A DNA stretch of 64,000 bases from Candidatus Cloacimonadales bacterium (GTDB taxonomy: Bacteria > Cloacimonadota > Cloacimonadia > Cloacimonadales > DAONDQ01). Shown piece by piece: positions 2,889 to 64,000 of this stretch. The translations under genes were made by a program, and so were the position numbers. Within the stretch, counting starts at the first letter, position 1. Each line of letters begins with the position of its first letter. Below the pieces are notes generated by a model. The model was not told the DNA's origin. It worked only from the letters and a program-made list of their open reading frames with translations, and made no database searches. The stretch covers positions 1,376,001-1,440,000 of the forward strand of contig OY759316.1 in assembly GCA_963662275.1 (NCBI GenBank). Direction: 5' to 3'.

Positions 2889-4598
2889 ATGAATATAATT
2901 ACAGAACATAATCTCCTTATTTTCCTGGTGCAATTTGCTTTGATCCTGGGTCTGAGCAAACTCCTCGGTCTTATTTTTATCAAATGGAAACAATCGACAC
3001 TCACCGCTGAAATTCTTGTAGGTTTAATTCTAAGTGTAACGATACTAGGCAGATTAGCCCCATCGTTACGTGCTGTAATATTTCCGGCTGATAAAATCCA
3101 GGATTCCATGCTGCAGACGATTGCCTGGTTGGGTAACTTGTATCTGCTTATGGAAACCGGTCTTGAGATAAATTTCTCCCAGGTATGGAAGCAGAGAGGA
3201 CAGGCATTGATCATTGCCTTGTCGGATATCGTTATTCCTGTGCTTCTATTAACAGTGCCCATGATGCTTATCACAAATCATTATATGCCTAATGCCGGAA
3301 ATCCATGGATTCTTTCAGCTTTTCTGGCTATGATTCTTTCCATCAGCGCTTTACCTGTCACAGCTCGTGTTTTGTATGATTTACATATCCTGAAATCGGA
3401 CTTCGGTTTCCTGATTGTGTCAACTCTTGCCATCAACGACGTTATCGGATGGGTTGCGATTAGTCTTGTCTTAAAACTCCTGGAGCAGTCTGTATTTGAT
3501 TTTATGCTGATCTTCAAATTCATCTCTCTAATAGTGCTTTTTATTGTAATCAGCATGACTGTGCTTAGAAAATCAATTGATAAAATAATGTCATTGATTC
3601 ATGATAAATATGGTTCTGATAGCGGAATTAAGACATCCCTGGTCTTTTTAATTGGAATGCTATTTGGTGCAATGACATTAGCCTTGGGAATTCATTCAAT
3701 GTTGGGATTCTTTATTGCCGGCATTACGGTGGGGGCTGCTAAGCACTTTTCCGATAATGACAGGCATGTGATGAATCGAATGGTACATTCCATTTTCATC
3801 CCTGTATTCTTTGCCAATATCGGATTACATCTGAATTTCATCTCCAGTTTTGACGTTCGGTTAGTTTTAGTTTTTACGATATTTGGGATGCTTATCCGAT
3901 ATTCAGGTGCCTATTGTGGAGCAATCTTTGCCAAGTTGGAAAAATTCAGTTGGAATCCAATTGCTATCTGCCATACAGCGGGTGGAGAAATGCATATCGT
4001 AGTGGCAGGTTTAGCCTATTCAGCCAATTTGATATCTGAACCAATATTCCTGGCGATCGTAATTTCATCTATCCTTTCTACAGTTTCTTTGGGTCCGCTT
4101 TTATCACGAGCAATCAAAAAACAACGCGAAAGCATACTTGATGTTGTATTTGCTCAAGATTCCATCAATACCGGATTGAATTTTCAAGATAAAGAGGAAG
4201 CCCTTGTATATCTGGCGAAATCTGTTTCTAATCGTACCGGTATAGCCTTTGAACCTGTATATAATGAAATTATGAAAAGAGAGGAAAGAATGACGACAGC
4301 TATCGGGCACGGCGTGGCTATTCCTCATGCCAGGCTGGAAGGTATCAATTATCCACTGATTCTATTGGTTAGAAATAATACGGGGCTGGAATGGGATAGC
4401 CCTGATGATAAACTGGTACGTTTGATATTTCTTTTAATCACACCTGCTCATAACGAAAAAATTCAATTACAGATATTGCAGGCTTTAGCAAAAGCTCTAT
4501 CCCAACCTGATTTGATGGATAAACTTAAAAATGCAGCGAATCCTAAGCAATTATGGGAAGATTTAAGAGACCAATTCAGTGAATTGAAATTGAGCTAG
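2889..4598 (+). CDS. Cation:proton antiporter (CPA2/KefB-like) fused to a C-terminal PTS EIIA domain
   Basis: Multi-TM protein with GLEINF, SISALPVTARVL and INDVIGW motifs; C-terminal REERMTTAIGHGVAIPHAR and WDSPD EIIA motifs. Confidence 0.9.
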   Translation: MNIITEHNLLIFLVQFALILGLSKLLGLIFIKWKQSTLTAEILVGLILSVTILGRLAPSLRAVIFPADKIQDSMLQTIAWLGNLYLLMETGLEINFSQVWKQRGQALIIALSDIVIPVLLLTVPMMLITNHYMPNAGNPWILSAFLAMILSISALPVTARVLYDLHILKSDFGFLIVSTLAINDVIGWVAISLVLKLLEQSVFDFMLIFKFISLIVLFIVISMTVLRKSIDKIMSLIHDKYGSDSGIKTSLVFLIGMLFGAMTLALGIHSMLGFFIAGITVGAAKHFSDNDRHVMNRMVHSIFIPVFFANIGLHLNFISSFDVRLVLVFTIFGMLIRYSGAYCGAIFAKLEKFSWNPIAICHTAGGEMHIVVAGLAYSANLISEPIFLAIVISSILSTVSLGPLLSRAIKKQRESILDVVFAQDSINTGLNFQDKEEALVYLAKSVSNRTGIAFEPVYNEIMKREERMTTAIGHGVAIPHARLEGINYPLILLVRNNTGLEWDSPDDKLVRLIFLLITPAHNEKIQLQILQALAKALSQPDLMDKLKNAANPKQLWEDLRDQFSELKLS

Positions 4599-20918: not shown

Positions 20919-21035
20919 AATTAAAAATTAAAAATTAAAAATTGCAGAGCAGACCAATCTGGTTCCCCTCCCATTTACACCCCTAACCGAGGGGGGATGA
21001 AGGAGTGTTGTTTCATTTAGGGGAGAGCTAGTTCT
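20919..21035 (+). repeat. (AATTAAA)3-AATTGCAGAG array followed by an interrupted copy of the DUF559-flanking hairpin repeat
   Basis: ggttcccctcccattt (20961-20976) and ttaggggagagctagttct (21017-21035) match the two ends of the reverse complement of 61405-61452. Confidence 0.85.
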
Positions 21036-59278: not shown

Positions 59279-59757
59279 CAATTAAAAATTAAAAGTTAAA
59301 AATTTAAAATTGCAGACATGAGTGCAGTGTTTGCCACCCTTCCCGGAGGTGGTATCATGAAGTGATGGGGTTAATCCAGTGTATTTTCTTTTCGCAGATA
59401 TGTTATAAAGTATAAGATTTACTTGTATACGCCAACTTATAATAATTTATATGGTTAGTAGTAGCTGTTTAGAACTGCCAAGATTGGAGAATGATTACTC
59501 ATTTATGGTACAGCTAATTCTTATTACCTCTTCCTTTTTTTCATAAACTGTGTAATTTTCTTTATGCATCTTTTAGATTTTAGTTTGATGTAAACAGATG
59601 GCTTGTGATCATTAAGTGAGCGAATACGTTAGTAGAAATTATGTAAAATAAGGAGCAGATAATTAAACTCTCCGCAAATCCCAACAATCCAGAGGATAAA
59701 CACATTGGTTTATCCCTACTCTGCAATTTTTAATTTTTAACTTTTAATTTTTAATTG
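59279..59757. repeat. 38-bp inverted pair of AATTAAA-heptamer/GCAGA arrays (59279-59316 and 59720-59757)
   Basis: 37/38 identical in inverted orientation; each follows the stop of one of two convergent genes. Confidence 0.9.
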
Positions 59758-59766
59758 AAAAGCTAA

Positions 59767-60933
59767 TTACAATTTTTCCTGAAAAATTGTGATTAGCTTT
59801 TCCACCGCCATGCTTGCAGTAATATCCCCATTCAGAAGCTGCTTCTGAACATCCGGCAAGGATGTCTTTATCCCCGGATTCTGGTAAAAGCTAGCTTCTA
59901 AATATTCCTGGATCATCGATTTTACCCAATCTAATACTTGTGAATTTCGACGTTTTAAGAAGAAGCCATTTTTTTTCGTCACTTCCTTGAAATTCTCAAT
60001 CAGTGCCCAGATTTCAGGAATGCCTTCTTCCGTGAGAGCAGAGCAGGTATAGGCATCAGTTTTCCAGCCTATTGTGGCAGGAGTTAGGTAATGAAGGGCA
60101 TGAGCATATTCAGAACAAGCCCTTTTTGCGCTTTGTATATTATCACCATCCGCTTTATTCACGACGATAGCATCGGCAAGCTCAATCACACCTTTCTTGA
60201 TACCTTGCAGTTCATCTCCTGCACCGGGGATCTGTAAAAGGAGAAAGAAATCAACCATGGAACGCACGGTGATTTCACTCTGACCCACACCGACCGTCTC
60301 CACGAGGATTACATCATATCCTGCTGCTTCGCATAAAAGCATCGTTTCACGCGTTTTCTTCGTCACACCACCAAGGGTACCACCCGAAGGAGAAGGACGT
60401 ATAAAACAGTGCGGATCACGCGCTAAACGCTCCATACGGGTCTTATCACCAAGAATACTTCCATGCGTGATACTGCTGCTCGGATCAACGGCAAGAACTG
60501 CCACATTATGCCCTTGCGAAGTAAGATAAGAACCGAAAGTCTCTATAAATGTACTTTTACCAGCGCCGGGTACACCTGTAATGGCAATGCGAATAGAATT
60601 ACCTGCTTTGGGTAAGATGTTGCGAATCAGCTCCTGTGCCAGTACCTGGTGAGTATGGGAATTGCTTTCCACCAAGGTAATAGCCCTGGCAAGGATCATA
60701 GTATCCCTGTTCAAAATACCAGCGATATAATCATTTATCGTCAGTTTCTTTGGATGTTTTACTGGTCGTAGCGCTCGATCTCCGAGCGGGTTGGATTGTA
60801 GGTCTCGATCTCCGAGCGAGTTGGATTTAGAAGGTAACCCATCGTGGACAGATTCCACACCAGGCATGACAGTGGTTGTGAATTCACTACCTGCATTAGC
60901 AGGAGTCCATTCCGGCTTCTTACTCTTTGGCAT
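59767..60933 (-). CDS. meaB: Methylmalonyl-CoA mutase-associated GTPase
   Basis: ITGVPGAGKST, AVDPSS, GSILGDKTRM, ETVGVGQSE, GDELQGIKKG, NKAD. Confidence 0.96.
   Translation of the reverse strand: MPKSKKPEWTPANAGSEFTTTVMPGVESVHDGLPSKSNSLGDRDLQSNPLGDRALRPVKHPKKLTINDYIAGILNRDTMILARAITLVESNSHTHQVLAQELIRNILPKAGNSIRIAITGVPGAGKSTFIETFGSYLTSQGHNVAVLAVDPSSSITHGSILGDKTRMERLARDPHCFIRPSPSGGTLGGVTKKTRETMLLCEAAGYDVILVETVGVGQSEITVRSMVDFFLLLQIPGAGDELQGIKKGVIELADAIVVNKADGDNIQSAKRACSEYAHALHYLTPATIGWKTDAYTCSALTEEGIPEIWALIENFKEVTKKNGFFLKRRNSQVLDWVKSMIQEYLEASFYQNPGIKTSLPDVQKQLLNGDITASMAVEKLITIFQEKL
60768..60827. repeat. Two tandem 30-bp GTAG + hairpin units inside meaB
   Basis: gtagcgctcgatctccgagcgggttggatt / gtaggtctcgatctccgagcgagttggatt (27/30). 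Confidence 0.85.
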
Positions 60934-60953: not shown

Positions 60954-61449
60954 TCCCCTCCCATTTGTAAAGGGAGGGGTCGGGGGAGAGCTAGTTCTTT
61001 ATATTTCCATCACATCATCAGGCTTTTCAATTAAACAATACAGATGTTCTAAAACCACATCCATATTTATCATTACATCAAAATTAGTAAATCTGATCAC
61101 CCTGATTCCGAGATTTTCAAAATACTCGGTTCTCTTGTGGTCATATTCCCTATTAGTTTCCTCAAAATGTTGACTTCCATCAAGTTCAATCACTATTTTC
61201 TTTTCCGGGCAACAGAAATCAGCAATATAATTTCCAATACCTTGTTGTCGATAGAATTTCAAATTCTGGAAGCGTTTATTCCGCAATCGCCCCCATAATT
61301 TCTTTTCTGCATCTGTCTTTTCTTTTCGTAGATGAATCCGGTTATCTTTTGTTGATTTTCGGTTTATTGTTTTCATTATGTCCTCCGAAAATATGCATCA
61401 GAGCAGAACTAGCTCTCCCCTAACCCCTCCCTTTACAAATGGGAGGGGA
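60954..61449. mobile_element. Candidate mobile unit: DUF559 gene between 45-bp hairpin-containing inverted repeats
   Basis: 60954-60998 vs reverse complement of 61405-61449: 43/45 identical. Mobility is inferred. Confidence 0.55.
60999..61376 (-). CDS. DUF559 (Vsr-like PD-(D/E)XK) endonuclease domain protein
   Basis: LRK..TDAEKKLW..LR, KFYRQ, YIADF, IELDGSQH, YD..RT, VIRFTN; GGAGGA RBS. Confidence 0.93.
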   Translation of the reverse strand: MKTINRKSTKDNRIHLRKEKTDAEKKLWGRLRNKRFQNLKFYRQQGIGNYIADFCCPEKKIVIELDGSQHFEETNREYDHKRTEYFENLGIRVIRFTNFDVMINMDVVLEHLYCLIEKPDDVMEI

Positions 61450-61462
61450 ACCGGAAGAGAAT

Positions 61463-61528
61463 CTCTGCAATTTTTAATTTTTAATTTCTGCCCCTGTTAC
61501 CTGTTACCTGTTACCTGTAACCTTCTGC
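61463..61528 (-). repeat. Stacked heptamer arrays separated by GCAGA
   Basis: Minus strand: GCAGAAG GTTACAG (GTAACAG)x3 GG GCAGA (AATTAAA)x2 AATT GCAGAG; includes the mutase stop codon. Confidence 0.9.
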
Positions 61529-64000
61529 AAAGCTCGGTCATCATCACTTTAGCTGAATATGGCAGCACTGTTCCCGGTCCAAAGATGGCAGCAGCGCCGT
61601 GTTCTCTCAGGAATTCATAATCCTGGGCAGGAATCACTCCACCGACAACGACCATGATATCTTCTCTTCCCAACTTTTGAAGTTCTTCCATCAAAGCGGG
61701 GAGGAGGGTCTTATGTCCGGCTGCAAGGGAGCTCATACCTATAATATGCACATCATTCTCCACCGCTTGTTTGGCAGTTTCTTCCGGTGTCTGGAATAGC
61801 GGTCCGATATCCACATCGAATCCCATATCGGCGTAAGCAGTGGCAACGACCTTTGCCCCGCGGTCATGTCCGTCCTGACCCATCTTGGCGATGAGAATAC
61901 GCGGACGTCTTCCTTCCTCTTCAGCAAAAGCATCTGTCAAGGCACGGATTTCATCGAATTCAGACTTATTGGCATATTCGCTGCCATACACATTATTGAT
62001 GGTGCGAATTGTGGCTTTATGACGACCAAATATCTTTTCCATAGCGAACGATATCTCCCCTAATGTTGCCCTGGCTCGTGCTGCTTCAATGGAAAGCGCC
62101 AGGAGATTACCTTCACCTGTATCCGCAGCTTTGGTTATAGCTTCCAGACAGGCATCCACTTTAGATTGATCACGATTACTCTTTAATTCATGAAGCCGAC
62201 GTAATTGCGCTTCACGTACAGATGTATTATCAACTTCCAGGATTTCCATGGGTTGCTCTTTCTCTAAACGGTATTTATTCACACCGACGATCGTCTCGGC
62301 ACCGCTGTCTATATGTGCCTGGCGACGTGCAGCCGCTTCTTCAATTCTCATCTTGGGAAGTCCGGTTTCAATGGCTTTCGACATTCCGCCCAGTTCTTCC
62401 ACTTCCATAATATGATGCCAGCCACGTTTCATAATGGCATCGGTCAGGGCTTCCACATAATAAGAACCACCCCATGGATCCACGACTTTGCAGATACCCG
62501 TTTCATATTGAAGATACAACTGGGTGTTACGGGCAATACGAGCTGAGAAGTCTGTGGGAAGTGCGATGGCTTCATCCAGTGAATTGGTATGAAGTGACTG
62601 TGTATGTCCCAGCGTGGCAGCCAAAGCTTCCATGCAGGTACGGGTGATATTGTTGTAAGGATCCTGTTCTGTGAGGCTCCATCCTGAAGTTTGGGAATGA
62701 GTACGCAGAGCCATGGATTTCGGATCTTTCGGATTGAAATCTTTGATGAGCTTCGCCCAGATCACACGGGCAGCACGCAGCTTGGCGATTTCCATGAAGT
62801 AATTCATGCCTTCACCCCAGAAGAAGGAAAGACGAGGTGCGAAAGCATCGATGTCAATTCCTGCCTTGATTCCGGTACGAACGTATTCCAGTCCGTCAGC
62901 AAGCGTGTACGCCATTTCCAAATCAGCAGTTGCACCGGCTTCCTGCATATGATAACCGGAAATGCTGATGCTGTTGAACTTGGGCATATTCTTCGTCGTG
63001 AAACTGAATATATCCGCTATGATCTTCATGGAAGGTTCAGGCGGATAGATGTAGGTATTGCGCACCATGTATTCTTTTAAAATGTCATTTTGTATAGTTC
63101 CGATTAGTTTTTCCATGGAAACGCCCTGCTCTTCGGCAGCGACGATATAGAAGGCTAGTATTGGCAGCACTGCTCCGTTCATCGTCATGGAAACTGACAT
63201 CTGGTCTAAGGGAATGCCATCGAACAAGATCTTCATATCGAGGATGGAATCAATGGCTACACCCGCTTTACCCACGTCACCAATCACACGCGGATTGTCT
63301 GAATCATAGCCGCGATGTGTGGCAAGGTCGAAGGCAACGGACAAGCCTTTCTGTCCCATTGCAAGATTACGACGGTAGAAGGCATTCGATTCTTCTGCTG
63401 TGGAGAAGCCGGCATATTGTCGAATCGTCCAGGGCTTCTGGATGAACATGGAAGCATATGGTCCTCTCAGGAATGGCGGGATACCGGACATAAACTGCAA
63501 GTGCTGCAATACTTCCATATCCGCCTTCGTATAGAGCGGTTTCACATCTATCTGTTCATTCGTATGCCAGATAAGCTGATCGAATTTTTCCATCCTGTAC
63601 TTGAGCTGGGCAGCATCCTGCATACTCCAATGCATCAGTGTTTCATCAACTCCAGCATTAGCAAGATCTTCATCGAATTCAACTTCAAGTAGGGGAGACC
63701 CATGAGGCAATTCCTGCAATGCTGCTTTCTTCCATTCATTCAATGATTCATCTAATCCCCCCTTGGGGAGTGAATTGTCTAATCCCCCCTTGGGGAGTGA
63801 ATTGTCTAATCCCCCCTTGGGAAGTGAATTGTCTGCTCCCCCCTTGGGAAGTGAATTGTCTGCTCCCCCCTTGGGAAGTGAATTGTCTAATCCCCCCTTG
63901 GGAAGTGAATTGTCTAATCCCCCCTTGGGAAGGGGGGTAGGGGGGTCTATCCTCTCTGTCCTGTACGCTGTACGCTGTACGCTGTTCCCTTTTACCAACT
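61497..64000 (-). CDS. scpA: Methylmalonyl-CoA mutase, B12-binding large subunit (start probably beyond the right edge)
   Basis: [42 protein letters not shown] (B12 ligand), SSLAAGH; frame open to the window edge. Confidence 0.96.
63751..63948. repeat. In-frame 27-bp tandem repeat (six full units plus a seventh ending in a C/G hairpin)
   Basis: TCT[AA/GC]TCCCCCCTTGGG[G/A]AGTGAATTG; encodes (LPKGG[L/A]DNS)n. Confidence 0.95.
63955..63989 (-). repeat. Heptamer array GGAACAG (CGTACAG)x3, the same units as at 41619
   Basis: Direct inspection. Confidence 0.85.

Follow-up and report, generated by a model that had tools for sequence, protein, structure and literature searches.

A DUF559 nuclease gene bracketed by BoxC/TM-type inverted repeats in a Candidatus Cloacimonadales bacterium: a probable REP/RAYT-like gene-repeat pair

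Introduction

The DUF559 gene described here and the inverted repeats that enclose it probably form a REP/RAYT-like pair, in which the nuclease would nick the folded repeat and host recombination would move both. DUF559 genes of this genome are bracketed exactly, each lineage by one repeat variant of its own; the repeats also occur as solo copies and doublets, cognate sites without the gene exist, cassettes form arrays, and purifying selection acts on the protein. Since exact bracketing and lineage-specific versions of the repeat are found both here and elsewhere, the enzyme likely acts on the repeats and aids their spread. The locus lies in a window of 64,000 nt (contig OY759316.1) from a genome of 4.38 Mb, here called G000; G001 is a relative of the same genus, and G021 and G039 belong to another genus.

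The widespread DUF559 domain has no known function; one structure, 3hrl, has been solved and is uncharacterised. Knowledge of BoxC/PIT/TM repeats in E. coli goes back to the 1990s, and hundreds of genomes contain them; the main text of PMC4666352 gives neither a function nor a way in which they spread, has 0 occurrences of the words 'endonuclease' and 'DUF559', and names no partner protein. No paper linking DUF559 with BoxC/TM-type repeats was found in the open-access literature (supplements lay outside the search, and the flanking-gene tables of Holder may list ycjD), and the text of PMC3184786 gave 0 matches for DUF559. Neither the class of repeat nor the protein family is new, but their pairing is undescribed in the open-access literature; the observation is real, and the mechanism a proposed one. 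New here are four protein-repeat lineages in one complete genome and sites that, reciprocally, carry the gene in one sister genome and only repeats in another, together with direct-repeat doublets that suggest a route of movement. The pairing makes the function of DUF559 and that of the BoxC/PIT/TM repeats testable together, and G000, with four lineages that each have their own repeat variant, is a good test bed for cross-specificity.

Organization of the locus

The DUF559 gene of the window, D1, is located at 60999..61376 on the minus strand and encodes a protein of 125 aa that matches PF04480 (DUF559) with an E-value of 1.9e-35 (Pfam profile) and has a predicted nuclease fold of the Vsr/EDxHD-like kind. 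It is the one DUF559 copy at this locus and lies between two host genes of the minus strand, meaB downstream (59767..60933) and the gene of the methylmalonyl-CoA mutase large subunit upstream (61497..63998), the ATG of which is 25 nt past the window end. The downstream end repeat (60954..60998, plus strand) and its inverted partner, the upstream end repeat (61405..61449, minus strand), both point into the gene; the arms measure 45 nt each, are complementary at 43/45 positions (96%) and lie 406 nt apart, and the TAA of D1 directly touches the left arm. The spacer between gene and upstream repeat comprises 28 nt (61377..61404, minus strand) and contains a Shine-Dalgarno-like GGAGGA at 61381-61386, 4 nt ahead of the ATG. 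The original prediction of a lone DUF559 gene between the mutase gene and meaB, flanked by 45-bp inverted repeats of which one abuts the stop codon, was confirmed as to neighbours, coordinates and complementarity. Its statement that no target duplication is seen likewise holds, as a comparison of the outer flanks of the repeat pair found them unlike.

The downstream end repeat is made up of a C-rich arm, a 9-nt loop, a G-rich arm, a 3-nt linker, a mirror third strand (GGGGAGAG) and a tail. It had been described as a hairpin with a G-rich tail; the hairpin is real, with 8 bp and -9.2 kcal/mol as DNA (ViennaRNA, hairpin part only), but the repeat is not a plain hairpin, for the purine tract behind it mirrors the G-rich arm in 7/8 triads. 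Judged by its sequence, it is a putative intrastrand-triplex element of the BoxC/PIT/TMECO architecture, that is, a hairpin with a mirror third strand. With z-scores of about -2, the predicted folding of the repeat stands out only modestly, because shuffled sequences retain their runs of C and G and the model omits the third strand. On reading by hand, the D1 variant lies outside both the TMECO consensus and the strict ITxF rule (stems of 6-15, loops of 1-6, at most one mismatch), the latter because of its 9-nt loop or two bad triads, while the variants of two further loci, D2 and D4, satisfy the ITxF rule, not the TMECO string. Over 90 distinct cassette ends, parsed automatically and crudely, the third strand follows the mirrored purine arm of the same end more closely than that of a shuffled partner (0.56 vs 0.44, reached in 0/2000 shuffles).

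A gene-less D1-type repeat is located at 20961..21035 (plus strand), where a second, nested hairpin repeat stands in place of the G-rich arm; three such composites occur genome-wide in G000. This interrupted copy and the (AATTAAA)n-GCAGAG leader in front of it are present as predicted, but the leader is a separate entity: of its 9 copies in G000 only 2 precede a D1-type repeat, and it was rejected as a part of the DUF559 unit. The leader at 61463..61487 (minus strand) accordingly belongs to a separate repeat family and lies outside the cassette. Tandem arrays of 3 or more heptamers number 132 in G000, with sites in the window at 61463-61520, 59719-59757 and 63960-63990. They adjoin all four full-length genes of the TIGR02436 four-helix-bundle family, on both sides in at least 3, and look like the repeat partner in a second gene-plus-repeat system; the association of heptamer arrays with TIGR02436 is familiar from family descriptions. 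Short CAGAG/CTCTG runs join many repeats of different families in G000, as at 20941-20960 of the window, and CAGA follows within 30 nt after 44/134 purine-rich heptamer arrays vs a background of 13%.

The C/G hairpin predicted at 63913-63948 is real as well, although it represents a different variant, the one that flanks the D4 locus. It is a D4-type triplex repeat (63919-63946) that follows six truncated 27-nt units of the D4 type, the whole feature (63751..63946, plus strand) lying in frame in the mutase N-terminus, which in G000 also contains heptamers. At the same place the G001 mutase (L173, about 4100-4290) contains in-frame heptamers and a different triplex variant, so that the mutase N-terminus looks like a tolerant hot spot, struck independently in both species. 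The N-terminus of meaB also harbors two 30-nt direct repeats in frame (60768-60827), which are missing from the G001 protein, as judged by length, and resemble another palindromic repeat family.

Repeat families and DUF559 loci of the genome

Triplex-type motifs are abundant in G000, with 191 found by a motif finder and 238 by the union of two patterns; one such pattern gave 206 matches vs 0 in a block-shuffled copy of the genome. Full copies comprise 16 of the D1 type, 86 of the D4 type and 41 of a GGAT type, for which no cognate gene was found in G000. Adjacent repeats form 35 back-to-back doublets (<150 nt), and strand bias is absent, 115/238 repeats being on the leading strand. The D3-type repeat has no solo copies in G000 outside its own locus, though the D3 gene is intact. 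Target-site duplication was rejected for three repeat families, in which direct matches between a copy's own flanks are no longer than between cross-paired flanks (4.31 vs 4.38, 3.98 vs 3.99 and 3.45 vs 3.34). The TCTG beside many solo copies was also rejected as a target duplication, as it is not copy-specific. Elsewhere, nested triplex repeats and non-coding DNA make up a 697-nt block that also carries runs of truncated GGAT-type hairpins and is tandemly duplicated after a host gene (G000:C1:803938-805240).

A search of G000 with PF04480 gave 11 matches, the eleventh of which is weak and lies within an ORF of 1586 aa. In addition to D1 there are D2, a DUF559 gene with an in-frame stop, D3, an intact gene at a single locus, and D4 (G000:C1:3580955-3588100), a tandem array of 7 near-identical cassettes separated by repeat doublets. 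Five of the D4 copies are intact, one has a stop, and the remaining one, which also has a stop, is interrupted by an IS21-like istA/istB element with what appears to be a duplication of 7 bp. Beside the array (G000:C1:3577676-3579057) are three tandem, near-identical ORFs of 147 aa with a hydrophobic N-terminus, which from their appearance we take to be pilin-like.

At all four DUF559 loci of G000 (4/4), repeats pointing inward stand on both sides, and every locus has a variant of its own. Inward pairs less than 700 nt apart number 19, of which 7 enclose DUF559; among the 12 without it, the 7 pairs that were read contain no intact gene, and 3 further pairs are gaps of 55 nt.

The DUF559 protein

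In an alignment of 55 sequences (window D1, 52 of 80 loci from GTDB and 2 from relatives), T21, E24, W28, Q44, D53, E64, D66, G67, H70, D79, R82 and R95 are invariant, among which E24, D53, E64, D66, H70 and D79 are putative catalytic residues. The structure model of D1 (pLDDT 87.7) matches 3hrl (Z 15.6), the homing endonuclease I-Bth0305I (3r3p, Z 11.6) and Vsr (1cw0, Z 10.4; 25% identity over 105 residues); I-Bth0305I is also matched by profile (E 5e-5), and weak PDB profile matches to unrelated proteins (E 0.006 and above) were treated as chance. These fold matches agree with the grouping in the accessible part of PMC3424549, and Vsr-type enzymes work by hydrolysis with metal-binding acids and a histidine, as stated in the part of PMC3239194 available to us. 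Pfam gives DUF559 only, and neither an HUH motif nor an invariant Tyr was found among the invariant columns; strand transfer by the DUF559 protein itself is therefore unlikely, judged by the chemistry of the family.

Strong purifying selection acts on the D3 protein: compared with its orthologue in G001, dN is 0.079 and dS is 1.22, the latter close to that of neighbouring housekeeping genes.

Comparison with related genomes

Among the 29 meaB loci of relatives, the mutase gene is adjacent to meaB in 14, and none of these (0/14) has DUF559 between the two genes; the expectation that relatives would show this site without the gene was thereby borne out wherever the two genes adjoin (14/14). At the site that holds the gene in G000, G001 has a solo D1-type repeat among other repeats. 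The reverse is seen at the 3' end of valS, where G001 has a doublet-DUF559-doublet and G000 only an array of the same doublets. Furthermore, a D4-like gene of G001 follows a host gene; after the orthologue of that host gene in G000 there is only a repeat of a different subtype. At queC, the cassette is upstream in G021, downstream in G039 and on neither side in G027; G039 retains a gene-less doublet upstream, and an apparent decayed hairpin is found downstream in G021. In both genomes the flanks of the DUF559 gene are direct repeats, identical at 206/213 nt in G039 and at 88/96 in G021.

G000 and G001 share the site of D3, which has stayed in place since the species diverged; mobility is therefore slow or lineage-specific. 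A DNA search of G001 for the neighbourhood of D2 returned only repeats and the D3 orthologue. In four sequencing runs, contigs end at repeats and no joint skips the cassette; one run contains a related DUF559 that shows 25 differences over some 250 nt and lies on a contig of 375 nt unbridged to neighbours. Neither a circle nor an excision joint nor a precise empty allele turned up in the genomes and run contigs examined.

Distribution in other genomes

From GTDB, the best 80 of 358 D1 homologue loci (42-56% identical) were used, 62 of which had enough flank for a control by window pairs 700 nt further out. An inverted-flank score of at least 30 was reached at 47/62 homologue loci vs 0/62 distal controls, which bears out the predicted enrichment of such flanks. 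The upstream end of a locus found its best match in its own downstream end in 37/80 loci, and among the top three in 50/80.

Protein identity and flank similarity are correlated over 108 loci (rho 0.32; three weak family matches lacked an alignment and one was omitted). Cross-phylum pairs alone gave rho 0.32, or 0.31 after GC correction, and strictly non-coding flanks gave 0.29 across phyla (92 loci with a phylum label), each with 0/1000 permutations. The expected co-variation of protein and repeat is thus seen at rho 0.29-0.32 across phyla; it shows that the gene and its ends travel together, and physical linkage alone also predicts such co-variation.

A strong DUF559 match (E <1e-20) was found in 16/40 relatives. 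At least 5 raw pattern matches occurred in 8/16 genomes with vs 1/24 without DUF559 with the first pattern, and in 11/16 vs 2/24 with two patterns (Fisher 1e-4), the second pattern having been designed after the flanks of the relatives were viewed and the related genomes not being independent. The prediction that repeats go with DUF559 holds to this extent, but 5/16 genomes with a strong match have fewer than 5 repeat matches, D3 lacks solo repeats, and G027 (21 pattern matches) and G035 (46) are repeat-rich and gave no DUF559 when searched at E<=0.1.

On plasmids, DUF559 homologues are rare (40 of 72,556 records). In E. coli K-12, the published TMECO no. 9 sits 168 nt downstream of ycjD, a DUF559 gene, and a degenerate TMECO half overlaps the ycjD stop codon; upstream of ycjD no TMECO was found on inspection. 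In the accessible part of PMC12817139, ycjD appears only as a gene that is conserved in several phylogroups and has no known function. Several loci (L044, L046, L073, L125, L128 and others) contain hairpin-flanked DUF559 domains within open frames of 668-1030 aa, which suggests in-frame insertion into host genes. A quick DUF559 tree serves for orientation only, 52/104 of its forks being open.

Proposed mechanism and alternative explanations

From the arrangement of genes and repeats we infer what the nuclease acts on, that it nicks, and how the gene-repeat pair moves. The predicted Vsr-fold nuclease would nick its own repeat when this is folded as a hairpin or triplex, after which the repair and recombination machinery of the host would copy repeats and gene, excise them or insert them anew. 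Recombination through the repeats is the most economical route: since doublet-gene-doublet amounts to direct repeats, it can loop out a circle of gene plus doublet and leave a solo doublet behind. Re-entry of such a circle at another repeat would give tandem arrays or local hops, and a circle that opens between its two hairpins would give a minimal inward pair as in the window, without target duplication. A broader proposal, put forward tentatively and somewhat doubtful as a whole, is that DUF559 might be a structure-specific, triplex-reading nuclease, the missing partner of BoxC/TM repeats, driving mobile DNA that needs no transposase; its nick would seed repeats, and doublet-gene circles would excise and re-integrate to leave solo doublets, arrays and in-frame insertions across many phyla. 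If the pairing works as proposed, a hydrolytic nuclease would underlie a second system of the REP/RAYT kind, one that evolved independently, and DUF559 might be the first protein found to recognise an intrastrand DNA triplex in nature.

Homing, in which the nuclease cuts gene-less repeats or doublets, the gene is copied in, and the repeats spread by other means (slippage or another enzyme), is a rather unlikely alternative. It would fit the nearest characterised structural relative, the homing endonuclease I-Bth0305I, as well as the cognate gene-less repeats at sites filled in sister genomes and the repeat-rich genomes devoid of DUF559. However, the 125-aa protein is without the N-terminal DNA-binding repeats described for EDxHD homing enzymes in the accessible part of PMC3239194, occupancy is low, with only 1-7 genes per hundreds of repeats, and homing leaves unexplained why 22/24 genomes without DUF559 are also without repeats. 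Also improbable is a domesticated enzyme, kept by the host to resolve hairpin or triplex obstacles, the flanking copies being historical or autoregulatory. The strong purifying selection on D3 and its long residence at one site would agree with this, as would the rarity on plasmids and the retention of ycjD across several E. coli phylogroups, as far as the available text of PMC12817139 goes, whereas the patchy occurrence among relatives, the four paralogous loci, the pseudogenes, the 7-copy array and the shifted sister sites are traits of mobile DNA.

Terminal inverted repeats around a single gene, in a genome that contains IS21-like elements, would also be expected of a MITE-like cassette mobilised in trans by an IS200/605, RAYT or DDE transposase, with DUF559 as a passenger. 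This is very unlikely, as copy-specific target duplication is absent in three repeat families, no other gene was seen inside the inward repeat pairs read, and the passenger is of the same family, with active-site residues that are invariant across many phyla. Many types of repeat gather in the intergenic spaces of G000, so that flanking by chance, or repeats acting as RNA-level terminators or stabilisers, may be considered; we give this scarcely any credence. Chance is refuted by the matched pairs at all four loci of G000 and by the flank scores elsewhere. A role in RNA is countered by the absence of strand bias; according to the main text of PMC4666352, moreover, RNA does not form purine triplexes, and PIT elements showed neither promoter nor terminator activity. 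The pairing of DUF559 with its own repeats, moved by host recombination, is thus preferred.

Relation to known systems

The protein shares its fold with Vsr (1cw0), a nicking enzyme of similar size. Unlike the setting of Vsr, no cytosine methyltransferase lies beside D1, the neighbours in the window being the mutase gene and meaB; to our knowledge, Vsr is not repeat-flanked. An insertion sequence or MITE is not indicated by the contents of the cassette, as no DDE, Tyr or Ser transposase was found inside the D1 ends by Pfam or structure.

With the EDxHD homing endonucleases (I-Bth0305I), DUF559 has in common the Vsr-like core with conserved acids and a histidine, as given in the accessible part of PMC3239194. 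In contrast to them, it is free-standing: it has no N-terminal NUMOD/HTH region, is not associated with an intron or intein, and lies between copies of its own repeat instead of within a conserved gene.

The repeats share with BoxC/PIT/TMECO elements, as described in the main text of PMC4666352, the order of pyrimidine arm, purine arm, short linker and mirror third strand, the intergenic position, the absence of strand bias and the frequent inverted pairs; moreover, one element published there adjoins E. coli ycjD. The window variant differs in its 9-nt loop and imperfect third strand.

The closest parallel in organization is REP/REPIN-RAYT, here compared on the basis of the accessible parts of PMC2817692 (Nunvar 2010) and bioRxiv 10.1101/2021.07.10.451892 (Bertels and Rainey). 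Common to both are a small nuclease gene enclosed by an inverted pair of repeats, one of which often abuts the stop codon, and repeats that are abundant genome-wide, with doublets, BIME-like arrays and co-variation with the protein. Rarity on plasmids and vertical persistence, as of D3, recall RAYT too, although the tandem array and the shifted sites do not fit a gene fixed in place. The analogy with RAYT drawn in the original prediction therefore stands for layout, abundance and co-variation, but not for chemistry or for the repeat head: RAYT is a Y1 HUH transposase, whereas DUF559 is a Vsr-fold PD-(D/E)XK hydrolase with no HUH/Tyr chemistry, and the DUF559 repeat opens with a C-run and has a mirror third strand where REP has a GT(A/G)G head. 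Unlike RAYT, which is described as non-transposing, the DUF559 gene occurs in tandem arrays, at differing sites in sister genomes and, judged by ORF length, apparently in frame in host ORFs. The system described here works like REP/RAYT, yet fails membership on the enzyme and on the head of the repeat.
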